Shown: positions 7,071 through 60,310 of the stretch, piece after piece | How the letters are laid out: every line of letters starts with the position of its first letter | How positions within the stretch are numbered: the stretch's first letter is position 1 | NCBI GenBank assembly: GCA_905478415.1 | Contig: CAJQIG010000002.1 | Span: 5,573-69,572 of the forward strand | Direction of reading: 5' to 3' | Source: an uncultured Patescibacteria group bacterium | GTDB lineage: Bacteria; Patescibacteriota; Microgenomatia; UBA1400; PJMF01 | Length of the DNA: 64,000 nucleotides | Notes under the pieces: model-generated | Told to the model about the DNA's origin: nothing | What the model saw: only the letters and a program-made list of their open reading frames with translations | Database searches by the model: none | Position numbers and translations under genes: made by a program

Positions 7071-7091
7071 AGCCAGGTAAGTTGCCTGGCT
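7071..7091. terminator. Candidate bidirectional hairpin terminator between convergent genes
   Basis: agccagg-taagttg-cctggct is a 7-bp stem. The T-rich tract is on the minus-strand side only. Confidence 0.35.
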
Positions 7092-7122
7092 CATTGTAGT
7101 TAAGCAGCTCTAGCTAGGAGCG

Positions 7123-17350: not shown

Positions 17351-17359
17351 AATAATAAA

Positions 17360-42383: not shown

Positions 42384-43376
42384 CTACTCTGTTTCTATTC
42401 GCACACCTTCGGCGTGAACAGCTACTTCGATTATTTTGCCACCGTGAGCTTTCAGAGCTTCAATAACTGCTGGCTGAACATCTTCTGGAGCCAACGCTAA
42501 AATACAATCACCACCGGCAGCTCCCGATGATGTTGCACCTAAAGCTCCAGCTGCAAGAGCAGCTCCAGTGAGTTCTTCCAGCTTAGCGTTACTAACGCGA
42601 AGCTTCTGGGCACATACTTGAGAGGTAGTAAAAAGATCTCCAATAGCTTTCCAATTACCTGCTTCAGCTGGTTGAGTAAAAGCATTTGCTATTTCTGCAA
42701 TTTCTTCAAAAATAGCTTGAATCTTTTCGGGATTATCAGCCAACATTGTATCAACGACTCGAATAAGTGTTGGTGTATCAGCTTTTGCACCAGAATAAGC
42801 GATCACAAGGGGGATTTTTTTAATAGCAATGGGACGAACGATTTTCGCAGGGCTGACATAGTAGAGGGTGCCACCCCAAATGGCAGCGGCAATATCGTAT
42901 CCAGAACCTACACCTTGAACCTCAATAACCGCGTTATAGCATAAATTAAAAAGCTCTTGGTTGGTGAGCTTGATGCCATATAACGTTGTTAGGGCTTTTG
43001 CAAAAGCAACGGTAACTGCACTGCTTGATCCAAATCCATAGGTCGAGGAAAAATCACTTTTTGTGGTCACAATAATACCCTCTTTTTGAGGGTGTTTTTC
43101 GAGAAAATGTTTATATAAAATTTCGATAAATCGCACTGCTTTTGGTAAATCTTTTTTTCCAAGGTCAGCCATGTTTTTTGTATAAGCCGTTAAGCCTAAG
43201 TCTGGAGCATCTAGGTGAAAGACGTCAACTCCATTCTTTTTAACCGTAGCAAACAAGCGCTGATCAACTGCCGTCACAATCGTGGGATGACCATGCACCA
43301 CTGCATAACCAACTGAGAGCATCAATTTTCCTGGTGCCGAAGCAGTTACTTGATTTTGTTCTGTTGTTTTTGTCAT
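42384..43376 (-). CDS. Phosphomevalonate kinase (GHMP family)
   Basis: APGKLMLSVGYAVV matches the PMK N-motif APGKLxLxGEY. GFGSSSAVTVA matches GHMP motif 2. Confidence 0.65.
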   Translation of the reverse strand: MTKTTEQNQVTASAPGKLMLSVGYAVVHGHPTIVTAVDQRLFATVKKNGVDVFHLDAPDLGLTAYTKNMADLGKKDLPKAVRFIEILYKHFLEKHPQKEGIIVTTKSDFSSTYGFGSSSAVTVAFAKALTTLYGIKLTNQELFNLCYNAVIEVQGVGSGYDIAAAIWGGTLYYVSPAKIVRPIAIKKIPLVIAYSGAKADTPTLIRVVDTMLADNPEKIQAIFEEIAEIANAFTQPAEAGNWKAIGDLFTTSQVCAQKLRVSNAKLEELTGAALAAGALGATSSGAAGGDCILALAPEDVQPAVIEALKAHGGKIIEVAVHAEGVRIETE

Positions 43377-43412
43377 GTGTTTACTGCTTTCTTTAGAAAG
43401 TCCTCGAAAAGA

Positions 43413-44285
43413 CTATTGTACCTCAACCATAAAGTTTTCCCAAGCCTGGGCATTACAAAATGCTTGCAACTCTTCAAGATTATGGCTTGTTGCAAGTAGC
43501 CAACCAGAGCCAGTTGTAACACCTCCAGCTCCAGTAATTTTGGTGTGGGCACCTTCTCCTTGCAACTGTTTGATCATTTTTATAGCTTTTTGACTAACAA
43601 CTCCAAGTGACTCAAGCTCAATTTGATTTGCATCAAGTAACTCACCAGTAAATGAGCCATCAAGCAACTGTTCTCTAATAAACCCACTTATGGTTCCAAT
43701 TTTTTTACAATGCTGATGTAACTTTGGATCTTTTTTAAGAGTATCAGCAACTTTTTGCACCATTTCACCAGTGGTTTCTGTAGCTTCGCCAGAATTAATA
43801 AGCAGAAATGAGTATTTTTGAGGTAACGTTAGTTTTGTACAACTCATCTGTTTTGTATCTTTTATAAATGAGTGTGTTCCTCCATACACAACCGCACACG
43901 GATCAATACCGCTAGGATTTGTATGTATAAACACTTCTGATAGAAAAACTAAATCGTACAGTTGCTCACTGGAAAGCGTGATTGAATACGTATCTGCAAG
44001 TGCTTGCATAACAGCATGCGCATATGCTGCTGAAGAACCAAGTCCCGCTTTTTTTGGCAACTCACTAACGACTGAAACTGAAACATTGCTTGCCTCAACT
44101 GAAAAGTGCTCAGAAAAAAGCGATACAATGTGCTGCAAGTAGGGAGATCTCGGTGCTAAAGCAACTTTGGTCACCTGAACAGTTACTCCTTTAGTAATAG
44201 CTGACACTACCGCTGGATAGCCATATACCACACTGTGCTCACCAGTGATAATTACTTTTCCAGGTGAAAAAAAGGTTTTGTTCAT
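43413..44285 (-). CDS. mvk: Mevalonate kinase
   Basis: SPGKVIITGEHSVVYG and GLGSSAAYAHA. Confidence 0.75.
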   Translation of the reverse strand: MNKTFFSPGKVIITGEHSVVYGYPAVVSAITKGVTVQVTKVALAPRSPYLQHIVSLFSEHFSVEASNVSVSVVSELPKKAGLGSSAAYAHAVMQALADTYSITLSSEQLYDLVFLSEVFIHTNPSGIDPCAVVYGGTHSFIKDTKQMSCTKLTLPQKYSFLLINSGEATETTGEMVQKVADTLKKDPKLHQHCKKIGTISGFIREQLLDGSFTGELLDANQIELESLGVVSQKAIKMIKQLQGEGAHTKITGAGGVTTGSGWLLATSHNLEELQAFCNAQAWENFMVEVQ

Positions 44286-44569
44286 AGTTTTTCTGCTTTT
44301 AAGCCATACGGTATCGGCTGGCTTGGAGTATTTGAAGCTAATCGACGAAGTACTAATCGGACTGCATCCCCCTTGACAAATGTTACTCCGGGAACTCCCA
44401 TAACTTCCATCTTTTTTTCTTCGACAGAAATAATCAAAAAGCTATAGGGGGAAAAAAGTGCTTGGGCTGTTGGAGGAATAAAAATCTGAGTCGATTGAAC
44501 AACTGTACCTGTTTTAAATAACAGGTTTGACCAGTTACCTTTTTTTCTCCAATATTCTGCTGGTTTCAT
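44282..44569 (-). CDS. DUF35-like OB-fold protein (archaeal thiolase/HMGCS scaffold-type)
   Basis: 95-aa ORF translationally coupled between the thiolase and mvk. The position matches the archaeal thiolase-HMGCS-DUF35 trio. Only weak sequence motifs. Confidence 0.4.
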   Translation of the reverse strand: MKPAEYWRKKGNWSNLLFKTGTVVQSTQIFIPPTAQALFSPYSFLIISVEEKKMEVMGVPGVTFVKGDAVRLVLRRLASNTPSQPIPYGLKAEKL

Positions 44570-45732
44570 GACTGTCCCTTTTCGAGAATATGTACCACTG
44601 CTGTAGCACCACTACCACCAACATTATGTGTCAAACCAACTGAAAAATCAGAGTTTTCACGAAGGAGACGAGTCATGTAAGCCACTTGCTTAACTCCCGT
44701 GGCTCCAACAGGGTGTCCACAAGCTTTAAGACCTCCCGAGTGATTAATTATTGGCAACGAACTTTTTAACTTCTTTTGTGAGCTTTGACGATACTGTGAC
44801 AGTGTTGTTTCTTCTTTCAACACTGCGGTGGCAGCAGTTCCTCTCTTGCAAAAACCGAGATCTTCCATTGCAAATAACTCTGCAATGGTAAAACAATCAT
44901 GTACTTCGGCAACTTGAATATCCGTTGGTTTTTTGTTTGCCATTGCATATGCTTTTTTTGCTGCATCTACCGTACTCTGCAACGATGTGAGAGAACTTCT
45001 GCGAGCTAGGTCCAGTGTTTCTTGTCCCTGCCCAAAACCAGTTAGGGCTACCAATTGCTTACGCGATGGCTTTACAGATAACACAACTGCAGCTGCTCCA
45101 TCAGTAATTGGTGAACAATCAAGAATTCTGAGCGGATCGGCTACTAACATGCTTTTTTCAACTTGGTCTGGAGTAATTGTTCTTCTGAACTGAGCTTGTT
45201 GATTTGCGAGTGCATGGCTGTGATTTTTTGCTGCAATCATACTCAATGCTCGACGCGGTGTCTGGTATTTATGCATGTGTTCTTTTGCTAGAAGCGCATA
45301 GAGACCTGGAAATGTGCTCCCATACTCTCTTGCTGCATCAGCTGCCGAGGAAAGTATCGTGGTAACACCATTTGTATCATCGGTCATTTTTTCGACCCCA
45401 ACAACTAAAACCGTTTGGTACATGCCCGAAAGCAGCGCCATCTCGGCTTGCAGAACTGCTAAACCACCAGAAGCACAAGCAGCTTCGACTCGGGTGCTCG
45501 GGGGAAGATGTGAGAAAAAGCTTGAAACAAGCGCCCCCAAATGCTGCTGGCCTTCAAATTGTCCAGCGGCCATGTTTCCAACAAAGATGGCTTCAATGGT
45601 ACTAGGCTGTATGACAGCATCTGCGACTGCTCCAAGCGCAGCCTCTTTGGCTAAGTCTTCCAAGCTGCGATCCCACAGTTCTCCGAACTGAGTAATATGT
45701 GTGCCTTGGACAAAAATGGGAAGGTGTGACAT
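44566..45732 (-). CDS. Acetyl-CoA C-acetyltransferase, archaeal-type (SCP-x-like) thiolase
   Basis: Thiolase fold with the active Cys region EAACASGGLA and a Gly-rich C-terminus HNVGGSGATA. It lacks bacterial AtoB-type motifs. Confidence 0.65.
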   Translation of the reverse strand: MSHLPIFVQGTHITQFGELWDRSLEDLAKEAALGAVADAVIQPSTIEAIFVGNMAAGQFEGQQHLGALVSSFFSHLPPSTRVEAACASGGLAVLQAEMALLSGMYQTVLVVGVEKMTDDTNGVTTILSSAADAAREYGSTFPGLYALLAKEHMHKYQTPRRALSMIAAKNHSHALANQQAQFRRTITPDQVEKSMLVADPLRILDCSPITDGAAAVVLSVKPSRKQLVALTGFGQGQETLDLARRSSLTSLQSTVDAAKKAYAMANKKPTDIQVAEVHDCFTIAELFAMEDLGFCKRGTAATAVLKEETTLSQYRQSSQKKLKSSLPIINHSGGLKACGHPVGATGVKQVAYMTRLLRENSDFSVGLTHNVGGSGATAVVHILEKGQS

Positions 45733-45734
45733 GT

Positions 45735-46781
45735 TTAGTGTCCCCTCGATGTATTTTTTAGATACTCTGAGTACGAAAGAGTGTATGACTTTTTAAGCTG
45801 GTCTGATACTAATGAGTTCCAAGCGCTTCTCTTTTTAACTAGTAAGGGAGTTGTTTTAAGTAGGAATGCATCTGAACCAGCTCCCGATCCATAAGAGGCC
45901 AATAAAATTGTTTTATTAGCTCCTACTGTATCCAGTAAGTGCGCCAATGCAATCAAAGAAGCAGCCGAGTAAGTATTTCCCACCGTTTCTACGAGTAATG
46001 AAGGCTCAATTTGTTCTTTAGAGAACCCTAATCTTTTGGCAACCTGACGAGGAAACTTTGCATTTGGCGTATGAAAAACACAGTAATCAATTTGGCTTGG
46101 TGTAAGCTTGTTTTGATTGAGAAGTTGAGTAACACTTTTAGTAATATGAGCAAAATAGGCTGGTTCACCAGTAAATCTACCTGCATGACTGGGGAATGGC
46201 GCGCCTGCGGCGCGCCAAAAGTCCGGCGTATCACTCACCACCGAAACAGTATCTAACATTTCAACTAACATCCCTCGGCTCCCAACTACAAAAGCTGCAC
46301 TTCCAGCCGAGGCCGTGTATTCAAGTGCATCTCCAGGAGCTGCTTGAGCCGTGTCGCTGCCAATAGCGAGACCTAGTTCGTGCTGACCAGCTTGCACATA
46401 GGCAGCCGCAATCTGTAAACCTTGAGTTCCAGCTTTACAAGCGAACTCTAAATCGGCAACTGCTAACTGTTCTGAAAGTCCAAGGGCTGCTGCCACGGTG
46501 GCACCTGTTGGTTTAACTGCGTAAGGGTGACTTTCACTTCCCACAAATACCGAACCCACCTTCTCTTTTTTAAAACTACTTCGTTCTAAAGCTTGCCCCG
46601 CTGACATAACTGCCAAAGTAGCTGCGTCTTCGTCAACTTGTGGTACTGATTTTGAAATAAGACCAGCCGCTTTTTGAGTACTCCCCGGACTTTTTCCACG
46701 AACCATATCAATTTCTGCAGAAGTCAATCTGCCAGAGGGGATATAACAACCATAAGAAACAATACCAATCTTTTTTTTCAT
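45735..46781 (-). CDS. Hydroxymethylglutaryl-CoA synthase (archaeal-type)
   Basis: MKKKIGIVSYGCYIPSGRLTSAEI N-terminus. Condensing-enzyme fold. Confidence 0.75.
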   Translation of the reverse strand: MKKKIGIVSYGCYIPSGRLTSAEIDMVRGKSPGSTQKAAGLISKSVPQVDEDAATLAVMSAGQALERSSFKKEKVGSVFVGSESHPYAVKPTGATVAAALGLSEQLAVADLEFACKAGTQGLQIAAAYVQAGQHELGLAIGSDTAQAAPGDALEYTASAGSAAFVVGSRGMLVEMLDTVSVVSDTPDFWRAAGAPFPSHAGRFTGEPAYFAHITKSVTQLLNQNKLTPSQIDYCVFHTPNAKFPRQVAKRLGFSKEQIEPSLLVETVGNTYSAASLIALAHLLDTVGANKTILLASYGSGAGSDAFLLKTTPLLVKKRSAWNSLVSDQLKKSYTLSYSEYLKNTSRGH

Positions 46782-47971
46782 TGGGATCGTCCTAATCGTT
46801 TATGTGCTGCTGCTAATGTATTAGTGCAAAGTGCTGCTAAGCCAGAAATTTCACCACCCAGTGCAACCGCTGCAACTGTGGCTGCTAACACGTGTGCTGT
46901 CAGCTTTTCTCCCGTAATTATCTGTTGCCACTGACGTTGTCCGGGTAGTAAAGTTCCTCCACCAACGGTTCCCACCGGCAGTGAAGCAATTTCTAAACGG
47001 ACCTGAACTCCACCTCCAACCGCTTCAAAAAAAACTTCTGCCGAAGATGCTACGTCAACCACATGTGCAATGTCTTGACCGGTAGCAACAAAAATTCCTG
47101 CCACTGCGTTAGCAACGTGCATATTCCCTGCAGGAATTCCAGCCAGTTGTGAACCAACCACATTTTTAGCAACATGTGTGGCAACTAAATCACCAGCAGC
47201 TACTTTCAGAACATTTTCTAAAACAGTTGGTGGAAGAAGTGCTTCTGCTCGTACTCGATATCCTCGACCAAGTTCCCTATTAATTCTCGATGGTTTTTTA
47301 TCTGTGCAAAGATTGCTCGATAAAGCTCTGAGTGAAACATCTTGTTTCATTTTTCTAGGAACTAACGTATTCCACCAATGGGAAAGAGCAATGCTGACCA
47401 TATTCATTCCCATTGCTTCACCAGTATCAAAAACACATCTGACAAACACTAAGTTGCCTTCAACCCATGTTTTTTGAGAAATAAAATGAAGGTGTGAACT
47501 AGTTGCAAGTGATGCCTCTTCAAAGAGTGAGCTATGTTCTGTAACCCAGTTTGCAAATTTTTGGGCTGATTTTGGAGTCGCGCACTCAAAAACAGGGGCT
47601 CTACTCATCCCCACTTTTTCTACCTGAACATTGAATTCTTTGGAAAGCGAAAGTGCTCGCACACCTCTACTTAAACTCGCAATTAGGGCACCTTCGGTTG
47701 TTGCAATTGGAACAATGACTTTAGCTATTTTGGTGATGTCAGGACCATCAGCCAAAGGAAGATTAAATGGGCCAACCACTCCAACCGGCAGAGCTACTGT
47801 GCCAACTAGGTTTTCACAATTTTTTGAACCAACAGACTGAATATCAAAAGGGAATACTTGTGTCTTTTGTAAAATCTCACCTCGAAGTTCTTTGAGCAAA
47901 CTCACTCGGGCTGAAACTTTCGCTTCTTCTGATTGATTTGATCGAATGTAAAAAGACTTTTGTGACATCAC
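46778..47971 (-). CDS. Hydroxymethylglutaryl-CoA reductase
   Basis: DTGEAMGMNMVS, the GTVGGGT motif and a size of ~400 aa. Confidence 0.8.
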   Translation of the reverse strand: MMSQKSFYIRSNQSEEAKVSARVSLLKELRGEILQKTQVFPFDIQSVGSKNCENLVGTVALPVGVVGPFNLPLADGPDITKIAKVIVPIATTEGALIASLSRGVRALSLSKEFNVQVEKVGMSRAPVFECATPKSAQKFANWVTEHSSLFEEASLATSSHLHFISQKTWVEGNLVFVRCVFDTGEAMGMNMVSIALSHWWNTLVPRKMKQDVSLRALSSNLCTDKKPSRINRELGRGYRVRAEALLPPTVLENVLKVAAGDLVATHVAKNVVGSQLAGIPAGNMHVANAVAGIFVATGQDIAHVVDVASSAEVFFEAVGGGVQVRLEIASLPVGTVGGGTLLPGQRQWQQIITGEKLTAHVLAATVAAVALGGEISGLAALCTNTLAAAHKRLGRSQ

Positions 47972-49178: not shown

Positions 49179-49703
49179 CTACTCTTCCCGTATCCATAAA
49201 TACTGAAACTCTTTTCGAGCTCTAAATAAGTCTGATTCAATGGCTTTACAACTTCGGCCGCATCTCGATGCAATCTCAGCAACCTTAAGTTTATCAATGT
49301 ACTTTTGTTGTAAGAGCTCACCCGATTCCCGCTTCATTTTAGAAAGAACAGAAGCTACTTTTTCAGACACATCATCTGCATCGTGCACATGGGAGATCAT
49401 GAATGAATCAACCAATGGGAAGGTCTTTAAAGCCTTCTTTGCATATTTTTTTCGATAATAATCAGCAATTTCATGACGCAAGACTGCGTTCATCCACGTC
49501 CACAGCGAAGATTTTCCACGAAATAATCCAATTTGCTTCATGCAGTTTATAAACGTTTCTTGCACCAGTTCTTCGGCCTCGGCTTTATCAGAGACACGCA
49601 GCTGGGCTACAACAAGTAAACGATCAAAGTATGTAGTAAACCAAGTCGCAACAGCTCGTTGTTCACCGTTTTGAAGACCAGTAATAAGTTTTGCCTCTTG
49701 CAT
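49179..49703 (-). CDS. RNA polymerase ECF-type sigma-70 factor
   Basis: Region 2 EELVQETFINCMKQIGLFRGKSSLWTWMNAVLRHEIADYYRKK and region 4 LKVAEIASRCGRSCKAIESDLFRARKEF. Confidence 0.8.
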   Translation of the reverse strand: MQEAKLITGLQNGEQRAVATWFTTYFDRLLVVAQLRVSDKAEAEELVQETFINCMKQIGLFRGKSSLWTWMNAVLRHEIADYYRKKYAKKALKTFPLVDSFMISHVHDADDVSEKVASVLSKMKRESGELLQQKYIDKLKVAEIASRCGRSCKAIESDLFRARKEFQYLWIREE

Positions 49704-49800: not shown

Positions 49801-50151
49801 ATGAAGCTTCAGTTGATACCACAAGCCTACGCTCAATGTTCCCCCGGAAGTGGAGGCGTTAATCTTGGTGACTGCCTCAAGCTTTCTGATAGTACTCCTG
49901 TCAGCGAAGTGTATAGCAACCCCGCTTTTCTCGTTAATTTAGTTGTCAGAAATTTGTTTATTGTTGGTGGCATTGTCCTAGTCATCATGTTCTTTCTAGC
50001 TGGATACAAATTTATTCTTAAAGGCAAGGAAGGTGTCCAAGAAGCACAATCACTTGCAACTAATGCCTTAATTGGCTTCATTATTATGTTTGCAGCCTAC
50101 TGGATTGTACAAATTATTGCTCTCATTACTGGAGCTGACATAGCACTGTAA
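49801..50151 (+). CDS. VirB2/TrbC-like pilin-family protein, paralog 1 of a 9-gene tandem array
   Basis: Signal/anchor. C-terminus LFIVGGIVLVIMFFLAGYKFILKGKEGVQEAQSLATNALIGFIIMFAAYWIVQ: TM-loop-TM. Confidence 0.5.
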   Translation: MKLQLIPQAYAQCSPGSGGVNLGDCLKLSDSTPVSEVYSNPAFLVNLVVRNLFIVGGIVLVIMFFLAGYKFILKGKEGVQEAQSLATNALIGFIIMFAAYWIVQIIALITGADIAL

Positions 50152-50156
50152 ACCGC

Positions 50157-50615
50157 ATGAAAATTCGTTCTCATTTCACCACTGTCATCTCTACCGCTTC
50201 TTTTTTTCTACTCGCCCTTATCCCCCAACTTAGAATTGTTTCTGCCGTCTTTGCTCAAGATGATCCAATTGGAACAATCGATAAACCAGAAGCTGTTGCA
50301 AACTTTGACAACGCTGGCGGAATTGGTGAAGGTGATATTGGAGTACTGTTTTTCTTCTCAAGAATGATTAGCTATATCACCATTGTTGCAGGTATTTGGT
50401 CATTCTTTAACTTGATCTTGGCTGGATATACCTATGTAACTTCTTCAGGAAACGCACAAAGTCACACCACCGTTCGAGATAAAATCACCATGAGCATCTT
50501 GGGAATGGTTTTGATTGTCACTGTCTATGCCATCGCCGGTATCATTGGCACTATTTTCTTTGGCAACTCCCTTTACTTCCTCAATCCAACCATCGAAGGA
50601 CCGGCTGCGATATAA
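50157..50615 (+). CDS. Pilin-family paralog 2
   Basis: Signal peptide. ITIVAGIWSFFNLILAGYTYVTSSGNAQSHTTVRDKITMSILGMVLIVTVYAIAG. Confidence 0.5.
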   Translation: MKIRSHFTTVISTASFFLLALIPQLRIVSAVFAQDDPIGTIDKPEAVANFDNAGGIGEGDIGVLFFFSRMISYITIVAGIWSFFNLILAGYTYVTSSGNAQSHTTVRDKITMSILGMVLIVTVYAIAGIIGTIFFGNSLYFLNPTIEGPAAI

Positions 50616-50630
50616 CCAAGGTACTGATTT

Positions 50631-51149
50631 ATGAAAAAACTTCTCTCTCAAACACTCATTTTTGCCATCATCTTTAGTAGTTTTTTACTGTTTACTCCTC
50701 AAAAAATTCAAGCCCAAGAGTGTTCTTATACCAGTCAGTGTGTTAATAACCAAAGCTGCTTATGTATCAGTGGTAGCATTTGCTTTCTAACTCCCTCGCC
50801 TTGTGGCTCCGCAATTATTGGAGAAGTGGCACCACCTCAAGGTGTAGCTGCTTATAATGAAGAAGCCGGTGGTGAAATTGGTCTCTTTAAGTTCGCCTCG
50901 AGGATTATTTCTCTCGCCTCTATTATCGGTGGTATTATTGTCATGGTGAACTTTGTTTCTGCTGGCTTTACCTATGTCACTTCGGCTGGAAATGCGAGCG
51001 CTCACGAAAAAGTTAAAGATAAAATCACCTGGGGATTAGTAGGACTAGCAATAATTGCTGCCTTCTACACCATTGCTGGTCTAGTCGGCCTCTTATTCTT
51101 TGGAAATGCAGGGGCTATCTTAAATCCAACTCTTGGTGGATCAGTGTAA
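50631..51149 (+). CDS. Pilin-family paralog 3 with a Cys-rich N-terminal insert
   Basis: Signal peptide, then QECSYTSQCVNNQSCLCISGSICFLTPSPCGS, then the module FVSAGFTYVTSAGNASAHEKVKDKITWGLVGLAIIAAFY. Confidence 0.5.
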   Translation: MKKLLSQTLIFAIIFSSFLLFTPQKIQAQECSYTSQCVNNQSCLCISGSICFLTPSPCGSAIIGEVAPPQGVAAYNEEAGGEIGLFKFASRIISLASIIGGIIVMVNFVSAGFTYVTSAGNASAHEKVKDKITWGLVGLAIIAAFYTIAGLVGLLFFGNAGAILNPTLGGSV

Positions 51150-51208
51150 AAGTACAGAACTTGAAGAAACGAGTACAAAAGAAGTAATAATTAGGATATA
51201 CTATACTT

Positions 51209-51577
51209 ATGTTAACGCTCATAGCACAATTTGGTGGAGGATTTGACACTGGCGATGCCCCTTTTTCTGAAGGTGTTGAAACCAATGAAGGAGCTCTTAC
51301 TAATCTAGAATCCTTTATTTCAAATATTATCGGAGTGTTAACTGTTTTTGGCGCAATTTTCTTTATTGTCTACTTTTTAATCGCTGCTCTTGCTTGGGTT
51401 ACCAGTGGAGGAGATAGTGGAAAACTGCAAAACGCCAGAGAACGCATGCTGCATGGGGTGCTTGGACTCATTATCTTAGTTGCCGCATATGGAATAGTTG
51501 GACTCATTGGATCTATCATTGGCTTTGATATCTTAAGTCCAGCTGAAAAATTACTTGAGTTAGCGCCAACACCATAA
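51209..51577 (+). CDS. Pilin-family paralog 4
   Basis: LIAALAWVTSGGDSGKLQNARERMLHGVLGLIILVAAYG. No obvious signal peptide in the ORF as tracked. Confidence 0.45.
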   Translation: MLTLIAQFGGGFDTGDAPFSEGVETNEGALTNLESFISNIIGVLTVFGAIFFIVYFLIAALAWVTSGGDSGKLQNARERMLHGVLGLIILVAAYGIVGLIGSIIGFDILSPAEKLLELAPTP

Positions 51578-51579
51578 TT

Positions 51580-52068
51580 ATGAAAAAACACATCACCACA
51601 ATTATCACCGCTACAACCACTTTTGGAGTAACACTACTTGCTCCTCTTAAAGCCTTTGCTGCTATTAATAATCCTGTCCTTCCCGAAAACTTAGGAGGAA
51701 CTGCAGATTCTTCTGAAGCAGCAACAAGTGGAACTGTATTTGTACAATATCTCGTCTCTCTTTGGGAATCTATGATAAACATTGGAGGGCTTTTAGTGCT
51801 CTTCTATTTTGCCTGGGGCAGCATTGAATGGATTACTGCTGGTGGCGATAGTGGAAAACTCGAGAAGGCACGTCTCCGAATGATGCATGCCATAATTGGC
51901 CTACTGATTCTAGTTTCAAGCTTTGTTATCCTCGGCTACATTAGCACAGCAATGTTTGGTGAAGAATTCCAAATCCTTAATCTTTCATTCCCGACTCCAG
52001 GAGACGCTGCTGGAGCAGCTGGCGGAGGTGGTAGTGGAGGCGGAGGCGGTGGTAATAACGTAATGTAG
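51580..52068 (+). CDS. Pilin-family paralog 5 with a Gly-rich C-terminal tail
   Basis: Signal peptide. WGSIEWITAGGDSGKLEKARLRMMHAIIGLLILVSSF. C-terminus AGAAGGGGSGGGGGGNNVM. Confidence 0.5.
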   Translation: MKKHITTIITATTTFGVTLLAPLKAFAAINNPVLPENLGGTADSSEAATSGTVFVQYLVSLWESMINIGGLLVLFYFAWGSIEWITAGGDSGKLEKARLRMMHAIIGLLILVSSFVILGYISTAMFGEEFQILNLSFPTPGDAAGAAGGGGSGGGGGGNNVM

Positions 52069-52081
52069 TGGTAAAAATTTT

Positions 52082-52660
52082 ATGAAACTCGCACAAGTCA
52101 CACTCGATTTTGCACAAGAAGCAATAGATAAAGAAGTTCCTGGGACAGCTAACCTTGATGCTGCAAACCACGCATCTGGATTTGGTCCTCTCCTTGGTAG
52201 TATTTTTTCATTCGTAATGCTCATTGCAGCTATTCTGGTCATATTTTACCTGATTTGGGGAGCTTTCGAATGGATCACTTCTGCAGGTGACAAAGGAAAA
52301 CTTGAAAAAGCCAGGCAACGTATTACGGGCGCAATTTTAGGTATCGTGGTACTTGGTTCTGTTATAGCTATCTTTATGGTTGTCCAACAATTCTTAGGAA
52401 TTGAGGCCTTCACCTTTGTTGGTGCCAGTGGTGGCACTAGCAGCGGTGGCGGAGGTGGGGCGGCAGTGGCTGATGGTGCCTGTGTTGTTAATGGCTCTAT
52501 GCTCAATGACGGTGGTGCAGGAAATTACTGTACTCAAGGAGCAGCTATCGTTCGTTGTTTTCCTCCTGAGGGAAGCTATGCCAGCAATCACTATAACCCC
52601 TGCTCTTGTGTAGATGGATCACAGTACGAACGACCAGGCTACAACTTTGGTTCGTGCTAA
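52082..52660 (+). CDS. Pilin-family paralog 6 with a Cys-rich C-terminal extension
   Basis: WGAFEWITSAGDKGKLEKARQRITGAILGIVVLGSV followed by a ~90-aa extension containing seven Cys. Confidence 0.5.
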   Translation: MKLAQVTLDFAQEAIDKEVPGTANLDAANHASGFGPLLGSIFSFVMLIAAILVIFYLIWGAFEWITSAGDKGKLEKARQRITGAILGIVVLGSVIAIFMVVQQFLGIEAFTFVGASGGTSSGGGGGAAVADGACVVNGSMLNDGGAGNYCTQGAAIVRCFPPEGSYASNHYNPCSCVDGSQYERPGYNFGSC

Positions 52661-52752
52661 TAAACCAGCCAAAGAAATTGGCTTGACTATTTCTCTGGAA
52701 CACAGGTATAATTGAAAGTATTAAGTTTGTAACTAAAGTAATAAGGAGAAGC

Positions 52753-53157
52753 ATGACAAACTCACTTAAAAAAATGGCAGCTTCAGCTGTCGCTACCGGA
52801 ACCGCTTATTTAACAGCCGTTTCACCAGTATTTGCTCAAATTGACGTAACTACCATCGAACCAGGAAAAGGTTTCGCAACTAACATCGGTGATGTTATTA
52901 ATGCTGTTCTCTCTTTTGTCATGGTAATCGCTGCCCTCTTGGTATTTATGTACCTTATCTGGGGTGGTATCGAATGGATCACATCGGGTGGAGACAAAGG
53001 TAAGACTGAATCTGCACGTAACAAAATTACTGCAGCTATCTTGGGACTTATCGTTCTTGCTGCTTCATATGCAATCCTCTTAATTGCTCTTAACTTCATC
53101 GGGTTTGAAAACCTTGGAGATGCTTTCAGCAATGTTAAAAGAATTAATGGTAACTAA
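52753..53157 (+). CDS. Pilin-family paralog 7
   Basis: Good SD aAGGAGaagcATG. Signal peptide. WGGIEWITSGGDKGKTESARNKITAAILGLIVLAASY. Confidence 0.55.
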   Translation: MTNSLKKMAASAVATGTAYLTAVSPVFAQIDVTTIEPGKGFATNIGDVINAVLSFVMVIAALLVFMYLIWGGIEWITSGGDKGKTESARNKITAAILGLIVLAASYAILLIALNFIGFENLGDAFSNVKRINGN

Positions 53158-53184
53158 TAGATAGTTATCTTAGACTTGAAACCG

Positions 53185-53215
53185 AAGGCCTCGCACTCTG
53201 TGCGAGGCTTTTTGG
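53185..53215 (+). terminator. Rho-independent terminator inside the pilin array
   Basis: aaggcctcgcac-tctg-tgcgaggctt followed by tttgg. Confidence 0.8.
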
Positions 53216-53242
53216 ATTCAAAAACAAACTTAGTAATATCGA

Positions 53243-53797
53243 GTGTTTACCAAATCTGATATACTAAGCCTCACTCAAATGGAAGACATGCTAAAAAAAT
53301 TACTCATACTTTTTATCACACTAGGTGCTATCGTGCTCTTGTCAAATCCAGCCTTAGGAAAAGCTAAGACTACAAATGATGTTCTTGTTCAACAAGACGG
53401 TGATATTTTGTTCTTAACAACTACCGAAGCTACCAATTCAGCAAACACTACTAAAACAACCACTCAACAATCATTTATTTCTCTTGAAAAAAGCTGGATT
53501 ACGATTCCAAAAGGATTTGCAACTGATGTTGGCACGCTTCTAAATGCCATTCTCAGTTTTGTTATGCTCCTTGGTTCTTTGTTAGTTTTTACACAACTTA
53601 TTTTAGCTGGATTATACTGGATCACTTCTGGTGGAGATAAGGGGAAGGTCGATGCTGCTCGTCAAAGACTCATGGCTGCAATTATTGGTTTGATTATTCT
53701 AGCCTCAAGTTTTGCTATTCTAACAATTGGACTTAATTTTCTTGGCTTTGAATCACTTGATGAAGTATTTAAAAACACTAAAACAATCGCTCCATAA
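53243..53797 (+). CDS. Pilin-family paralog 8
   Basis: Probable real start at MLKKLLILFITLGAIVLLSNPALG (~53288). LAGLYWITSGGDKGKVDAARQRLMAAIIGLIILASSF. Confidence 0.5.
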   Translation: MFTKSDILSLTQMEDMLKKLLILFITLGAIVLLSNPALGKAKTTNDVLVQQDGDILFLTTTEATNSANTTKTTTQQSFISLEKSWITIPKGFATDVGTLLNAILSFVMLLGSLLVFTQLILAGLYWITSGGDKGKVDAARQRLMAAIIGLIILASSFAILTIGLNFLGFESLDEVFKNTKTIAP

Positions 53798-53831
53798 TTT
53801 GGTATACTAAAAAAGTAGAAAAATTATATTT

Positions 53832-54266
53832 ATGTCAACAAAAGCAGCTAAATTCCTTAACAAGTTCTCAAGCTTTGTGGCTGCTCTTGCTTTTTACCTA
53901 ACAGTGGCCACTCCAGCTCGAGCTCAAACACTTACCTGGAGCGGTGTCTGTGTCGGTACTACCGAAAACTCTACTGATGTAGCAACACTACAAGGCCTTG
54001 AATGCTTGATTGCGAATGTCTTTACCGTCATCATTACAATCATTGGACTAGCTGGATTTGTCATGTTTGTAGTTGGAGGAATTACTTGGATGCTTTCAGG
54101 TGGTGATTCTGGTAAGGTTCAATCTGCTCGTGGTTCGATGACCTATGCGGTGGTTGGTATGGTTGTGGCACTGAGTGCCTTCATCATCCTCAACTTGATA
54201 GCTTCATTTACTGGAATTAGTTTGATTACTCAATTTAGAATTCCCGTTGCTGGCGACGGTACCTAA
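53832..54266 (+). CDS. Pilin-family paralog 9
   Basis: Signal peptide. VGGITWMLSGGDSGKVQSARGSMTYAVVGMVVALSAF. Confidence 0.5.
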   Translation: MSTKAAKFLNKFSSFVAALAFYLTVATPARAQTLTWSGVCVGTTENSTDVATLQGLECLIANVFTVIITIIGLAGFVMFVVGGITWMLSGGDSGKVQSARGSMTYAVVGMVVALSAFIILNLIASFTGISLITQFRIPVAGDGT

Positions 54267-54291: not shown

Positions 54292-57200
54292 TTGTTGAAT
54301 CACGTAATTCACGGTATACTACTGGTTGTGAACATCTTCAAGAAAATAGCTTCTATCATTTTCCTTTCTGCAGTTCTTTTTACCAGACCTCAAAAAATAT
54401 TTGCTGCCGTTGGTACCCATCTTGGGGCAGGTGATGTTGGCACACAAGTAAGTGTTATGAATGGTGTGATTGGAAATCGCCCTGGATTTCCCGTAACAAT
54501 TATGGCAGATATGGGTCTTTCTGACGACTCTTTAGGACAACTTGCAGCTGCCGCTAACAATAATGGACTCTTTCCAATTGTCCGTATTAACTATGCCTGT
54601 ACTGTAGCTTCTGACGAAGCTATCGCAATGGTAAATCGAGTTAAGGCTGCCTTTGGCAATGATGTCATCATCACTTTTGGAAACGAGGTAAACAACCAAA
54701 GCTCGGATAATGCTGGGTGTACCGATTGGAATAGATATGCAGCTAACTACAACTCCGTAAAGGGATTAGGAAATATTTCACCTTCTGCCCTTGATTGGTA
54801 CATGGGAGATCCAGCCTACAACGCCCAACTCTTTTTAGATTCTTCTGGCATGAATGGAGCCTACTCGGCTGCAGGCATACGAACCGCCAATGCCTACGGT
54901 TGTATTGGTGGCACCAGCAGTGACTGCGATCCAGCTGGTACTGACACCCAATCAATCGGTGTCCAGGGAACTAGTGGCAAAGAACTCTATATTACTGAAT
55001 TTTCCCTTTCTCCTGGTGGCGGTGATCCTCCCGATTCAAATTTAGCTAACGTTCTTGACTTCATTCAAAACCGTTCTGGCGAAATGAATGCAGCCCAGAT
55101 TACTCCACTAGTCAGAAATGTCTGTTCTGATCTGCAGAGTGAGGGAGAATGGCTTGTCTACGTTGAAGGTGAACTTTTTACTTGGGGTGGCACAAAAGTA
55201 GACCCCGACTGTAGCGCGATTGCTGGTACCAACGGGAGTAATGGCTATGACCTAAGTGATTTTCCAGAATACGATACCAGCCCCGATCTTTTTTACTTAC
55301 AACCAATATCAGGAATGCTCCCCCCAACCAGAAACGTAGACCTTATTCGCAAAGATTTAACTAGTTCAGGCTACGAAGCCTACTGTGCTGCCGAAAATAT
55401 TGAAATAAAACCTCGATACAATACCTCTAGTCTCATTGATAGATATTTAGAACTGTACCCAGATGGAATTAACTTGGCTGTTGACTCTGTCGCTTCAGCA
55501 GATTTTACCAATGCAAAAATTCCTATTTGGAGAGATGTCGAAGGCACAAAGTTTTTAATGAGCTCTCTTGAAGAATTCTTTAGTTTCAAAGACTTATACA
55601 CACAAGATCCAAATTATGCTGAGCTGAACTCTGCCCCAATCAACTCACTCTTAAGCCAAGAACAACGGTGTGTCCAATCCGCTCGAACTCTGTTGGCGAC
55701 CGAGCTTATGTGCGAAAAATTACTCAATCCTGGAGAGTGTGCACTACTTGCCCAGGCAGTACCCACTGGTGGAACTGTTGAAGAAGTCAGAACCATGATG
55801 CATGAGCTTATGCCAACCTACCGGGATGGTGGTATTTCAAGAGAATGTCGCAGCCTCTACTCTGCTGACCTTGAGGAAACACCAGCTATCAAAAAATTTA
55901 AAACAGCCTTACAAAGTTTTCCTCTGGAAATCAACAGATCGTACCGACTTGCCTTTTTAGTTGTTTCGATCGAAATGAAAGAACCCCTTCTCAGTGGAGA
56001 CGTGGCCAGTAAAATTTTTAACTTCTTTACAAAAAAAACTGAAGATTTAATTCCTAAACATGAGGTCCTGGTTATTGCGTTCAAAATTCCAGATATTGCA
56101 ACAAATAAAGGTGGTGGTGATGACTCAGGAAGTGTCTATTGGAATGACCCTTCGTACCTCACTCGCAACATTCTCCTTACCCAAGATCAAATTAGAAACC
56201 TAGAAGATGTCCGTCGTCCTCAAAAACGTAGTGAAATTGCTCAACTAGCAGAAGCTGCAAAGAATCAAAATGATGGTAGTCGTATTTTTTGCTATGAAGG
56301 CAACTTTCCAGATGGAGACGGCACTCCAGCTTGTAAAAATGAGCTTGGTAAAGCGGTCGTTGATATCGTCAATGGAGCCGCCTATGGCTGTGATGACAAA
56401 GAGACTGAGCCCGTAGCACAAATTAATGACTATGCTGGTCTGAGAGATCCTAAAGATCCTTATGGAAAAATCTATATCGACCAATGGGGAAATTCCCTCC
56501 TCCTTAACCTCTTTGGAGCAGGAAGTAATGCTGATGTAACGCATGTAGCTGATAATAACTACATGGACCCTCAAAAAGCTAAAACTTCAGACCCCTGGTA
56601 TGAAAAAATAAAAACACAATGGACTATTAACCCAACTACCTGGCCACCATCCGAAAATAAAACTATTGCTAACTACTACCTTGTTTACCCAATGGGCTTC
56701 GAATTAAAAGAAATAGAAGCTGTCATTAAAAACACCTTCTTTACTGCAGAACAGATTGCCCAAATCGAAGAAACAGAGGATATCTTAGATGGTTTTCCTA
56801 TTCAAGGTACTCAAATTGGTGTAGCTGGTGGAACTGCAACTTGGGACTTTCCTGACCCAGACAAAAACTGTGGTACAGATGCTTCGCCCAGCCCATGTAC
56901 AGAGTACGTCTCAATCCCTATCGAAACAGAAAATAAGGGAGTTGGTTTCTTAGGAGCAAATCTTGGATTTTGGCTGCGTCAGGTTCAAAGATCACTCAAC
57001 TCATCAGCATCAGCAACTCACAACTATATTACTTCGTGTAAAACTCTTGAACAATTTTTGTTAGGTCAATGTGCAGGAGGTATTGCAAGTGGAGATCCTT
57101 CTTCTTCAAACTTTGATTATGACACTTGTGGGTACAAGCTCGGTACCGGCTACTGTGCTCCCGATAATCTTGCCCCCTACTTTGCTGAAGCCGGCTTTGC

Positions 57201-57660
57201 TAACCCTCAACTCGAGGCAGACAAAGCCTCACGGATCTGTCAAAAAGAAAGTGGAAGTAGTCCCTATGCCTTTAATGATCGCTGCATAGAAGGCACTTCT
57301 GTTGACTATAGCGTGGGTCTCTTCCAGATTAATATGTTACCTCGCTGTCCTGGCTCTTTCTTAGATGGTAGCGGCAATCCAGATACTTCTGCAGCTTACG
57401 ATGCCTATGACCTTCCTTGTACTATTACTGACCAAGTTAATCTGAACGAATGCGCCCTTTCAAAGCTTGCCATTGGCTCATATGCACAACCTCGAATCAA
57501 CGCTAATTTACCAGCTGGAGCCTCTCCAATTCAACAAGACACCTTGGCAGAGGAAGCTATTAAAGCTGATAACAATATCAAAGCTATGGTACAACTGAGA
57601 AAAGCCTGGGGTAACTGGCAACCTTGGACAAATGGGGCAGGCAACTGCAGTATCGAGTAA
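54292..57660 (+). CDS. Secreted 1122-aa bifunctional cell-wall hydrolase: N-terminal GH clan-A-like glycosidase domain plus C-terminal VirB1/SLT-like lytic transglycosylase domain
   Basis: Signal/anchor. ITFGNEVNN (acid/base NE-motif) and YITEFS (nucleophile TE) are spaced ~110 residues apart, as in clan GH-A. C-terminal ICQKESGSSPYAFN...YSVGLFQINMLP matches the SLT catalytic ES...GLxQ[IV] signature. Confidence 0.55.
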   Translation: MLNHVIHGILLVVNIFKKIASIIFLSAVLFTRPQKIFAAVGTHLGAGDVGTQVSVMNGVIGNRPGFPVTIMADMGLSDDSLGQLAAAANNNGLFPIVRINYACTVASDEAIAMVNRVKAAFGNDVIITFGNEVNNQSSDNAGCTDWNRYAANYNSVKGLGNISPSALDWYMGDPAYNAQLFLDSSGMNGAYSAAGIRTANAYGCIGGTSSDCDPAGTDTQSIGVQGTSGKELYITEFSLSPGGGDPPDSNLANVLDFIQNRSGEMNAAQITPLVRNVCSDLQSEGEWLVYVEGELFTWGGTKVDPDCSAIAGTNGSNGYDLSDFPEYDTSPDLFYLQPISGMLPPTRNVDLIRKDLTSSGYEAYCAAENIEIKPRYNTSSLIDRYLELYPDGINLAVDSVASADFTNAKIPIWRDVEGTKFLMSSLEEFFSFKDLYTQDPNYAELNSAPINSLLSQEQRCVQSARTLLATELMCEKLLNPGECALLAQAVPTGGTVEEVRTMMHELMPTYRDGGISRECRSLYSADLEETPAIKKFKTALQSFPLEINRSYRLAFLVVSIEMKEPLLSGDVASKIFNFFTKKTEDLIPKHEVLVIAFKIPDIATNKGGGDDSGSVYWNDPSYLTRNILLTQDQIRNLEDVRRPQKRSEIAQLAEAAKNQNDGSRIFCYEGNFPDGDGTPACKNELGKAVVDIVNGAAYGCDDKETEPVAQINDYAGLRDPKDPYGKIYIDQWGNSLLLNLFGAGSNADVTHVADNNYMDPQKAKTSDPWYEKIKTQWTINPTTWPPSENKTIANYYLVYPMGFELKEIEAVIKNTFFTAEQIAQIEETEDILDGFPIQGTQIGVAGGTATWDFPDPDKNCGTDASPSPCTEYVSIPIETENKGVGFLGANLGFWLRQVQRSLNSSASATHNYITSCKTLEQFLLGQCAGGIASGDPSSSNFDYDTCGYKLGTGYCAPDNLAPYFAEAGFANPQLEADKASRICQKESGSSPYAFNDRCIEGTSVDYSVGLFQINMLPRCPGSFLDGSGNPDTSAAYDAYDLPCTITDQVNLNECALSKLAIGSYAQPRINANLPAGASPIQQDTLAEEAIKADNNIKAMVQLRKAWGNWQPWTNGAGNCSIE

Positions 57661-58696: not shown

Positions 58697-60310
58697 ATGG
58701 CTAAGCGAGCTCTCTTGATGCTAGCAGTACTGTTTGTGTTCCTTTTCGGGGGCCGAGCTTCTGTCGCACATGCTCAAGGAGCACCAGCAGAAAGTCCTTT
58801 TAGTCCGCAATACGACGCCAACCTCATTGATTCTTACCGAGAAGCTATCACTAACTGTGGAACTCCTTCTTTAGAATGTCTTGTTCACCACGTCTTTAAG
58901 TATGTACAAATTGAAACAGCTGGCACCGTCTACCAAGGAACTCCTCCAAGCAGTGCCGGGGCCCAATCTGCTGAAGCTCCAGCAACTAATAGTGTTGCTG
59001 GCGGCCTGATGTACTTAATCGGCCAAATGTATGCTTCACCTCCAGCCAGTACTGCCACCTATGTAGCTGATGTTATGAACAGCGCTCACATTGCTACCCC
59101 AGCCTATGCACAAGGACTTGGGTTTGCCGCCCTAGATCCCATTTTAGCTCTCTGGAAAACATTTAGAAATATCGCGTACCTCTTCTTTGTGATTATCTTT
59201 ATTGTCATTGGTTTCATGATTATGTTCCGGAATAAGGTTAACGGGGCTGATATTACGGCGCAACAAGCAATCCCAAGTATCATTGTTTCGCTTATCTTTG
59301 TTACGTTTTCATACGCTATTGCCGGATTTATGATCGACCTGATGTATTTAACAATGTTCCTTATGGTGGGACTGTTCGACACAACCATGACCAATGGTGG
59401 TCAAATTATTGATTACAACATTCTCCAGATTGGAGCCATGCTCTTTAGCGGAGTGGGAACATCCTTTAGTAATAACATTGATATCGTCACTAACATGTTA
59501 GCAGGGTTAGTCAGCGCCGAAAACTTTGGAACTGATCTGTTGGGTGTAATCGGTGGCGTTACTCTTTCGTTAGTGTTAGCTGTAGCTGTTATTATTGGAA
59601 CCTTTAAACTTTTCTTCGAACTCCTGAAAAGTTATGCCAATGTAATTGTCAGTACCGTTATCGCCCCAATTACCCTAATGATGGGTGCTATCCCTGGTAA
59701 AAACGTCTTCACTCCTTGGGTCCGAAACTTAGCAGGGAACCTGGCAGCCTTCCCCGCCGTTCTCTTCGTCGTCATTTTATATAACCAGTTTACAGAACTT
59801 GGCAGTGGAACAAATGGTGGCTTTATGCCTCCTTTTTTACTTGGCCGAGGCCAAGATGGCGCTATTGCTTCCTTAATGGGATTAGCCCTAATTTTAGCTT
59901 TGCCAGAAATTGTGAAAGAGATTAAAACTGCCGTTGGCGCTACTGAGGGTATTGGAACGAAGATTTGGGGATGGGCTTCAGCTCGAGCTAAAGAATCTCC
60001 AAGATATGGATTCCCTGTCTATGGTGCTGCAGCTGGGGGAGCCTATGGAGCTGCAAAAGGATTTATGCAAGGAGATGGCCTTACAGATCGATTATCAAAA
60101 GCGGGAGCTGGAATGAAAAGCCATGGTAGAAGAGGTTTCACCAAGGGACAAGATGCTGCTAAACAAACAGAACAAATCATGGAAGGAAAATTCTTTGACC
60201 CTAATAGCTGGGAGAATGCTCTTTTGAAACGAGAGCGAGCAGCTCAAGAAAAGGAAAGAGCAGAAGAACTACTCAAGAAAAAGCAAAATAAAGATAAAGA
60301 CCCAGGCTAG
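58697..60310 (+). CDS. VirB6/TrbL-like polytopic membrane protein (T4SS inner-membrane channel candidate)
   Basis: Signal peptide, a ~150-aa extracytoplasmic domain, about six TM helices and a long charged cytoplasmic tail. This is VirB6/TcpH-type architecture. Confidence 0.4.
   Translation: MAKRALLMLAVLFVFLFGGRASVAHAQGAPAESPFSPQYDANLIDSYREAITNCGTPSLECLVHHVFKYVQIETAGTVYQGTPPSSAGAQSAEAPATNSVAGGLMYLIGQMYASPPASTATYVADVMNSAHIATPAYAQGLGFAALDPILALWKTFRNIAYLFFVIIFIVIGFMIMFRNKVNGADITAQQAIPSIIVSLIFVTFSYAIAGFMIDLMYLTMFLMVGLFDTTMTNGGQIIDYNILQIGAMLFSGVGTSFSNNIDIVTNMLAGLVSAENFGTDLLGVIGGVTLSLVLAVAVIIGTFKLFFELLKSYANVIVSTVIAPITLMMGAIPGKNVFTPWVRNLAGNLAAFPAVLFVVILYNQFTELGSGTNGGFMPPFLLGRGQDGAIASLMGLALILALPEIVKEIKTAVGATEGIGTKIWGWASARAKESPRYGFPVYGAAAGGAYGAAKGFMQGDGLTDRLSKAGAGMKSHGRRGFTKGQDAAKQTEQIMEGKFFDPNSWENALLKRERAAQEKERAEELLKKKQNKDKDPG

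Follow-up and report, generated by a model that had tools for sequence, protein, structure and literature searches.

A gene behind a VirB2-like pilin array of a Microgenomates-type CPR bacterium encodes a protein with two predicted envelope glycosidase domains

Patescibacteria (CPR) represent a large part of bacterial diversity. As far as tested, i.e., in Southlakia, epibiotic growth cannot proceed without the T4SS-like machinery and pilin arrays of these bacteria (PMC10633639). According to a survey of these systems, VirB1 cannot be recognised in the majority of genomes that encode VirB2-like pilins, and in Microgenomatia VirB6 is "scarce" (PMC12102498). In the 64,000-nt window analysed here, derived from an uncultured, ultra-small Patescibacteria group bacterium, a large ORF is located directly behind nine tandem pilin genes (Table 1). 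The question raised by this locus is whether the product of the ORF could open the cell envelope for the pilus, which would make its family a candidate, amenable to testing, for the wall-breaching function missing in Microgenomatia.

Table 1. Coordinates of the large ORF, its predicted domains and residues, and other genes of interest in the window
Feature	Position (nt)	Strand	Basis or remarks
beta-N-acetylhexosaminidase-like protein	22309..23601
SpoIID-like protein	35947..37680
Gene of an ECF-type sigma factor, oriented divergently to the pilin array	49179..49703	-
Array of nine VirB2-like T4SS_pilin genes in tandem, immediately upstream of the large ORF	49801..54266	+	Pfam PF18895
Large ORF including stop codon	54292..57660	+	1122 codons from TTG 54292, uninterrupted
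Signal-peptide-like N-terminal segment, …NIFKKIASIIFLSAVLFTRPQKIFA/AVGTH	54292..54408	+	Hydropathy scan and sequence
GH-A-like (β/α)8 glycosidase domain of an unclassified family, aa ~40–312	54409..55227	+
N131-E132, predicted acid/base pair immediately following β4	54682..54687	+	Invariant in 47 sequences; model
E236, predicted catalytic nucleophile in β7	54997..54999	+	Invariant; model
Conserved family-specific middle region, aa ~336–925	55297..57066	+	Mixed α/β, helical and β-rich sub-domains; many invariant Cys
Lysozyme-like peptidoglycan glycosidase module (Pfam SLT_3), aa 945–1122	57124..57657	+
E986, predicted general acid, C-terminal end of a helix	57247..57249	+	Invariant; aligned to lysozyme Glu35
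D1005, equivalent of lysozyme Asp52/53 and EtgA Asp60	57304..57306	+	Invariant; alignments; PMC10880428

The open reading frame and its pilin neighbourhood

The original prediction of a 1122-aa ORF was borne out by the uninterrupted frame. A public gene call with an identical protein (P0001; 100% identity) is 1110 aa long and begins 12 codons downstream at GTG 54328, which is likely the true start. The predicted motifs were found at the positions claimed for them (FGNEVNN at aa 129–135, YITEFS at aa 233–238, ESGSS at aa 986–990 and GLFQIN at aa 1009–1014), with the distance between the NE and TE motifs being slightly shorter than the claimed ~110 residues (104 from E132 to E236). As core residues of the NE, TE, ES and GLFQ motifs are invariant in the aligned homologues, their occurrence is not due to chance.

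The protein had also been described as secreted. The hydropathy scan revealed a single hydrophobic segment in the 1122-aa protein, located at the N-terminus, in which a KK n-region and a cleavage-like site (IFA/AV) could be recognised, the site being placed by inference from the scan and the sequence. The protein contains 26 cysteines, many of them invariant among homologues. Such features suggest Sec export and an extracytoplasmic location, and the claim of secretion is retained in this predicted form.

All nine pilin ORFs match the T4SS_pilin model PF18895 (the scores of seven exceed the curated cut-off), and the spacing from the array to the large ORF is 25–61 nt on the same strand. The promoter/terminator scan, which gave results at the background level and was used solely to look for a terminator before the large ORF, revealed no terminator-like site between the last pilin gene and this ORF. 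The large ORF may well be co-transcribed with the pilin array. Its position right after the array, as originally noted, proved to be a conserved feature, since the gene was located directly 3' of T4SS_pilin genes in 7/7 genomes or loci examined, at a protein identity of 27–45%; a still more distant relative also had pilin neighbours. The wider neighbourhood varied among the seven loci while the adjacency to pilin genes stayed. The divergent arrangement of the ECF sigma factor gene and the pilin array was detected in four other genomes (loci L001, L003, L006 and L009). Together with three other conserved proteins without an assigned function, the ECF sigma factor, the pilins and the two-glycosidase protein make up a compact conserved locus. 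One conserved multi-TM neighbour was considered as VirB6 and rejected, as its homologues (at least 810) were all unannotated and no Pfam match was obtained. A virB4-type ATPase is encoded about 6 kb from the corresponding gene in L005 and about 35 kb from the large ORF in the window. Because of the latter distance, the link to the T4SS is an association with VirB2-like pilins, not a compact operon, and mechanistically it is indirect.

The N-terminal barrel and the middle region

The N-terminal domain had been proposed to be a GH-A-like glycosidase. The fold comparison of the predicted model revealed the (β/α)8 TIM barrel of clan GH-A, and both catalytic hallmarks of the clan, Asn-Glu at the end of β4 and Glu at the end of β7, appear to be present, with N131-E132 modelled two residues past the strand aa 126–129 and E236 inside the strand aa 231–239. 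The residues G130-N131-E132, N134, N135 and E236-F237-S238 were invariant among 47 homologues (26–75% identity to the query), and distant relatives retained the catalytic glutamates (GNEVNN/LTEY in P0077 and GNELNN/FTEF in P0087). However, no match to a glycosidase family model was obtained, Pfam being used as a stand-in for CAZy. The N-terminus gave no Pfam match at E ≤ 10, the NCBIfam search with the whole protein was also negative, and neither the N-domain profile nor phmmer matched any PDB sequence. The domain was thus not assigned by a sequence model to any established GH-A family (GH5, GH39, GH79, GH128 and others). The lack of a family HMM match had been named in advance as an outcome that would speak against the prediction, and for the N-domain it is the fold comparison alone that rescues the GH-A call. 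The domain apparently represents an unclassified GH-A-like family rather than a recognisable GH5-like member, and it may be a retaining β-glycosidase-type enzyme, as predicted from the model.

The PF00150 match found in the orthologue P0059 falls in an additional, bona fide GH5 domain at its N-terminus, outside the shared domain, and hence it cannot be counted as evidence on the query; hhalign of the N-domain to this genuine GH5 domain was insignificant. The exhaustive profile search revealed only 95 relatives in 1.84e9 proteins. It did not lead to any known GH family, the sole hint being that one distant member matched GH128 below the threshold. The compact clan GH-A structures used for comparison, GH128 β-1,3-glucanases (6UAQ), GH39/PslG (4ZN2, 1W91) and GH79 (5L77, 5BWI), share only 9–15% identity with the N-domain. 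Unlike these families, the query and its core family have no family HMM match, and their N-domain is rich in conserved cysteines and, in the core family, always fused to the family-specific middle region. No GH-A family is known to act on peptidoglycan, and therefore any contribution of the N-domain to "wall breaching" is conjectural.

The middle region of ~600 aa, absent from the original prediction, makes up over half of the 1122-aa protein. No relative of aa ~336–925 was found by fold or sequence. This part may act as a scaffold or a docking element. Independently of its possible role, the protein contributes a clan-GH-A-like family that is apparently unclassified, as well as ~600 residues for which no structural relative was found.

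The C-terminal module and its replacement in homologues

The C-terminal part had been described as a VirB1/SLT-like lytic transglycosylase, of which the affiliation with the lysozyme superfamily stood. The excised domain scored 32.0 bits against SLT_3 (PF18896), above the gathering threshold of 27 bits, and the full-length query scored 25.7 bits, below this threshold; SLT_3 was matched by 19/19 family members (best E 2.8e-14). In the model, E986 is located at the end of helix 637–652 (aa 972–987). The stretches E986-S987 and D1005-Y-S-x-G-L-F-Q-x-N1014 were invariant in the 19 aligned sequences carrying this module, the invariant set comprising E986/N995/D1005/Q1012/N1014. The query did not match the classical SLT model (PF01464) at E ≤ 10, and the AYNxG/YNxG motif was absent from aa 945–1122, with ES and GLFQ being present. 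The module is therefore distinct from a classical SLT of GH23 family 1, which combines PF01464 with ES, GLMQ and AYNxG. Due to these differences and to the invariant Asp, which resembles lysozyme Asp52 and EtgA Asp60 and is missing from canonical SLTs, the name "lytic transglycosylase" is not established, and the module could be a hydrolytic muramidase instead. Its predicted catalytic residues are the "hybrid" set of EtgA and hen lysozyme, and the same question of lytic transglycosylation versus hydrolysis concerns EtgA (PMC10880428).

The specialised peptidoglycan glycosidases of secretion systems, EtgA (T3SS; PDB 4XP8) and VirB1/IagB/IpgF, are among the closest known counterparts of the C-terminal module. 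In contrast to this group, the module occupies the C-terminal ~180 residues of a multidomain protein of 1122 aa, belongs to SLT_3 and not SLT, is devoid of Y-N-x-G, contains eight conserved cysteines and is encoded by a CPR bacterium with virB4 not adjacent in the window. The likeness to C-type lysozymes (GH22; hen, human) extended over no more than ~36 aligned columns, with an hhalign probability of 14% and an hmmsearch E-value of 0.05, while the cysteine pattern and the remaining domain differed, and the query is not demonstrably GH22. The tblastn search of plasmids with the module, aimed at annotated virB1 genes, gave only chance-level matches.

PrgK (pCF10), TraG (pIP501) and CwlT (ICEBs1), wall hydrolases of monoderm conjugative T4SSs, likewise carry two catalytic domains for envelope degradation in a single exported chain; they are associated with the MPF-FATA type, to which the T4SS of Patescibacteria is related (PMC12102498). 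These proteins pair a muramidase or SLT domain with a peptidase (CHAP, NlpC/P60, LytM), whereas the query combines a lysozyme-like domain with a GH-A-type barrel and a 600-aa region of no known relative; no sequence similarity to them was detected with Pfam and NCBIfam.

In the otherwise conserved family, the C-terminal module occurred in at least five sequence-unrelated types. In one orthologue, a T4SS_pilin domain was fused in place of the lytic module, and one distant relative ended in a near-threshold classical SLT. Pfam searches with the excised alternative modules gave hints at E~0.1 only, all to families of the lysozyme clan, and phmmer against PDB yielded no match. Local hhalign linked only types b and e. 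Type c, at first taken for a DPBB/RlpA-like domain, was left without any match and this impression was dropped. Such faint hints suggest that the C-terminal position may accommodate different lytic modules, the candidates being assigned without confidence. This natural series of swaps could reveal determinants of target-wall specificity.

Possible roles in envelope breaching

The protein is probably a Sec-exported envelope-breaching enzyme that serves the VirB2-like pilus of Microgenomates-type CPR as a functional analogue of VirB1. In other systems, the wall-opening job is done by VirB1, EtgA, PrgK and CwlT. Due to its consistent location behind the pilin array, the gene stands out as the most promising candidate for the wall-breaching enzyme missing from the pilus system. 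It would be transcribed together with the array, and its product of ~1080 residues, soluble, disulfide-rich and Sec-exported, would act on cell-envelope glycans. The GH-A barrel would cleave a non-peptidoglycan or other uncharacterised envelope polysaccharide, the C-terminal Glu/Asp module would cut the MurNAc-GlcNAc bond of peptidoglycan by hydrolysis or lytic transglycosylation and the middle region would serve as the scaffold or docking part. The opened glycan layers would provide a passage for the pilus or secretion apparatus, the cell being cut either the producer or the host. The enzymatic activities of both domains are predicted from conserved residues and the model. A barrel that is non-enzymatic and only binds carbohydrates or plays a structural role, leaving catalysis to the C-terminal domain alone, would find its model in the non-catalytic proteins of GH128 subgroup VII; it seems improbable, as the invariance of both catalytic Glu and the flanking Asn across the core family, with the glutamates preserved also in P0077 and P0087, is not expected for a purely binding barrel.

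The pilin neighbours would be a matter of chance if the protein were a general wall remodelling enzyme engaged in growth, division or turnover, with no role in the pilus or secretion. The presence of other wall enzymes in the window (SpoIID-like and beta-N-acetylhexosaminidase-like proteins) and the non-adjacent virB4-type ATPase are in line with such a role, but the pilin-domain fusion and the adjacency to pilins, which persists in homologues of only about 27% identity and in one relative still further removed, make it highly unlikely. Moreover, the family comprises only about 95 representative clusters and does not occur in bacteria in general, which sets it apart from housekeeping autolysins. 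A less probable but possible alternative to the producer's own wall as the substrate is a host-directed weapon or penetration factor at the epibiont–host interface, perhaps pilus-borne, with the N-domain digesting host surface polysaccharide and the C-domain host peptidoglycan to form a feeding or attachment junction. The exchange of lytic modules and the hypervariability of the neighbouring pilins (PMC12102498) would be expected if host-range pressure acted on parts that face the target, as it does in phage lysins, and the additional GH5 domain of one orthologue fits the same role. The pilin-domain fusion suggests physical coupling to the filament, and for essential envelope proteins of Southlakia that carry glycan-binding or -degrading domains, host glycans were the proposed target (PMC10633639). 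However, the monoderm T4SS hydrolases PrgK, TraG and CwlT, which act on the own wall, are likewise varied in their domain combinations (PMC12102498), and hence module diversity does not discriminate between the own wall and that of a host. Furthermore, the lineage has no known host, no sign of T4SS translocation was found in the 1122-aa protein and its N-terminus resembles an ordinary Sec signal, which alone leads only to the surface of the producer.

A more specific and rather doubtful proposal is that the protein forms the "drill head" of the CPR VirB2-type pilus, in which the 600-residue region would dock on the filament and the GH-A domain with the swappable muralytic module would pierce the host envelope. 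If true, Microgenomates-type epibionts would have a first defined factor for host penetration, and the type of the C-terminal module would track host wall chemistry. The pilin-fused orthologue would then represent docking turned covalent in one lineage.

Position and neighbourhood of the large ORF

The large ORF, originally predicted to stand right after a pilin array, was indeed preceded directly by nine tandem ORFs, each with a match to Pfam T4SS_pilin (PF18895) that exceeded the curated cut-off in seven cases, and this order was kept in six other genomes. The gap between the last pilin gene and the large ORF was 25–61 nt, and a sequence scan revealed no terminator-like site in between. In the six genomes, with protein identity down to about 27%, the gene lay directly behind one to about ten T4SS_pilin genes; pilin neighbours were also present at the locus of a more distant relative. 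VirB2 arrays of 2–11 genes are described as common in Microgenomatia. The T4SS of Patescibacteria is kin to monoderm conjugation systems (PMC12102498), and pilins are essential for the epibiotic growth of Southlakia (PMC10633639).

Downstream, the same six genomes carried three unannotated genes, coding for proteins of ~320 aa (−), ~560–680 aa with multiple TM segments (+) and ~1000–1500 aa (−), often followed by a gene for a large Peptidase_M23 protein. The latter had ~1360–1400 aa in the other genomes, its equivalent position falling beyond the window's end. The multi-TM protein has 537 aa in the window, where it shows a signal-like N-terminus and about 6–7 hydrophobic segments and matched nothing in Pfam or NCBIfam. 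None of its homologues, at least 810 in number, is annotated, and it is a candidate for the channel subunit 'missing' from Microgenomatia, a strongly diverged VirB6-like protein.

The divergent ECF sigma factor gene was also found in four of the six genomes (L001, L003, L006 and L009), and this recurrence suggests that the operon of pilin and glycosidase genes has a dedicated transcriptional regulation. The virB4/virD4-like ATPase gene was located about 35 kb from the large ORF in the window and about 6 kb in the genome encoding the orthologue P0038 (locus L005). The ATPase stretch (14150..19711) had the lowest GC content of the window (0.34 vs about 0.41). The counterpart of the SpoIID-like gene was found immediately upstream of the pilin genes in L005, L006 and L008, so its product may be part of this functional neighbourhood, even though the gene lies ~12 kb off in the window. 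In L001 and L003, synteny with the pilin locus extended to the flanking mevalonate pathway block, which is joined by a NUDIX gene. In L009, a small DUF6364 and PIN-domain pair (7028..7730), toxin–antitoxin-like, was inserted within the pilin array.

Features of the window and motifs of the protein encoded by the large ORF
Feature	Position	Strand	Remarks
1066-aa ORF after the ATPase gene	14150..17350	(−)	no family match
VirB4/VirD4-type ATPase	17360..19711	(−)	DUF87, TrwB_AAD_bind; weak NCBIfam TraD/CD1115 matches
SpoIID-like protein	35947..37680	(−)	PF08486
Mevalonate pathway block	~42384..47971	(−)	complete-looking; HMG-CoA reductase, HMG-CoA synthase-like, thiolase, GHMP kinases
ECF-type sigma factor	49179..49703	(−)	Sigma70_r2/r4_2; divergent from pilin array
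Nine pilin ORFs	49801..54266		PF18895
Large ORF	54292..57660	(+)	TTG start, 1122 codons, uninterrupted
Unannotated gene, 308 aa	57682..58608	(−)	syntenic in every locus examined; no Pfam/NCBIfam match
Conserved 537-aa protein	58697..60310	(+)	two genes downstream in 7/7 loci
Unannotated gene, 1164 aa	60398..63892	(−)	syntenic in every locus examined; no Pfam/NCBIfam match
FGNEVNN	aa 129–135
YITEFS	aa 233–238
ESGSS	aa 986–990
GLFQIN	aa 1009–1014

The protein family, its N-terminal barrel and middle region

The identical protein in the public gene call (P0001) has 1110 aa and begins at GTG 54328, which gives the N-terminus MNIFKKIASIIFLSAVLFTRPQKIFA|AVGTH. The single hydrophobic segment, located N-terminally, and 26 cysteines suggest that the protein is soluble, exported by Sec and stabilised by disulfide bonds. 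Among 5.8 billion proteins, a word-indexed search revealed 66 homologues, nearly all of 1075–1500 aa. Every name supplied by a source reads 'hypothetical protein'; most names stem from Woesebacteria, Pacebacteria or Microgenomates metagenome bins, with Pseudomonadales given in two NCBI names. All four motifs of the original prediction were present in the translated ORF, and in the alignment of 47 homologues, 26–75% identical to the query, H43, R98, G130-N131-E132, N134, N135, N200, Y202, E236-F237-S238, W287 and many cysteines were among the invariant residues, which places the motifs far from chance.

The GH-A-like character assigned to the N-terminal domain stood as regards the modelled fold and catalytic pair, whereas no family match was obtained in Pfam or NCBIfam, nor did a profile of 30 sequences match the sequences of any PDB chain. 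In the predicted model, N131-E132 immediately follows β4 (aa 126–129) and E236 lies inside β7 (aa 231–239), the clan-defining '4/7' arrangement, so that the model depicts a barrel of GH-A type whose catalytic pair is intact. When 1.84 billion representative proteins were searched exhaustively by HMMER, the domain profile returned only 95 proteins, 30 of them below 1e-30 and most also longer than 1000 aa; the family to which the domain belongs is small, restricted to a lineage and not covered by current family models. One distant member matched Glyco_hydro_cc (GH128) below threshold. The PF00150 (GH5) annotation of the orthologue P0059 (L008, 9001..13488) was considered as a clue to the shared barrel and rejected, as it sits in an additional N-terminal domain for which profile comparison detected no relationship to the shared one. 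P0059 thus carries a genuine extra GH5 ahead of the family barrel, giving three predicted glycosidase domains.

Residues ~336–925, absent from the original prediction, form more than half of the protein and are conserved family-wide, some of their Cys, Gly, Pro and Glu residues being invariant. Modelled with reasonable confidence, they combine a small α/β unit and a helical bundle, in which cysteines are conserved, with β-rich parts and additional helices; neither BFVD nor the Pfam and PDB profile searches yielded anything comparable.

The exchangeable C-terminal module

The full-length protein scored 25.7 bits against Pfam SLT_3 (threshold 27 bits) and the excised module (aa 945–1122) 32.0 bits, with all 19 aligned modules matching (best E 2.8e-14). 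The profile's best PDB sequence matches were C-type lysozymes, weak as they were (E 0.05 and 0.62), aligning E986 with Glu35 and the invariant D1005 with Asp53; hhalign against hen lysozyme aligned the same block over just 36 columns, at a probability of 14%. The invariant E986, N995, D1005, Q1012 and N1014 correspond to E42, N54, D60, Q65 and N67 of EtgA, a T3SS-associated peptidoglycan glycosidase that has been called a 'hybrid' between muramidase and lytic transglycosylase, its chemistry still unresolved (PMC10880428). Hence, of the proposed SLT/VirB1-like label, the fold, catalytic Glu and biological analogy were retained, but 'lytic transglycosylase' was not established, as neither classical SLT (PF01464) nor an AYNxG/YNxG motif was found in the module.

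Beyond about aa 930, the 47 members diverged into different C-terminal types: the SLT_3 type of the query (a; 21 members, ES…DYSxGLFQxN), b (12; …ALAMWGEESGFS…), c (5; YYAxG(L/V)MN…ALLRAGD), d (5; …EIEGSPYL…GPMQI…), e (3; …NETGG / TESGG…) and one pilin fusion. Profile comparison related only b and e. The alternative types had no match among PDB sequences and gave just faint Pfam signals (E~0.1), all of the lysozyme clan (Glucosaminidase (GH73), SLT_2, SLT). Because the types vary and a distant relative sharing the N-terminal domain only ends in a near-threshold classical SLT, the architecture of a GH-A-like barrel and a muralytic module is recurrent, with the latter exchangeable. In another distant relative, the shared part spanned the N-terminal domain and the middle region's first third.

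In the fusion, P0038 (L005, 10001..13231), a T4SS_pilin domain (28.9 bits) replaces the muralytic module, a link of the Rosetta-stone type that joins the large protein to the pilus. Upstream of the fusion gene, no more than one or two separate pilin genes are present in that genome.

Proposed action and target envelope

Multidomain wall hydrolases attached to secretion or pilus systems are already known, and no paper describing this family was found within the limited literature searched. What is new is that a GH-A-type barrel from an unclassified family is paired with a lysozyme-like module, that a region of 600 aa has no relative, that the modules are swapped in a natural series and that the family is strictly coupled to VirB2 arrays of CPR bacteria.

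The protein would be exported by Sec, fold with disulfides outside the membrane and, judging from the strict synteny and the pilin fusion, remain associated with the products of the pilus locus. The barrel would cleave a β-linked envelope polysaccharide by a retaining Glu/Glu mechanism; since no GH-A family in CAZy is known to cleave peptidoglycan, some other polysaccharide of the envelope would be the likelier target. The C-terminal module would cut peptidoglycan glycan strands through E986, assisted by D1005, and both domains would jointly open a passage for the VirB2-type filament or apparatus.

As a best estimate, the envelope opened would be the producer's own, as in the classical VirB1 role, which the Sec-type N-terminus and the parallel with PrgK/TraG/CwlT tend to favour. 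The exchangeable muralytic module and the extra GH5 of P0059 lean instead to a target-facing role, and action on the host's envelope is considered a less likely alternative.
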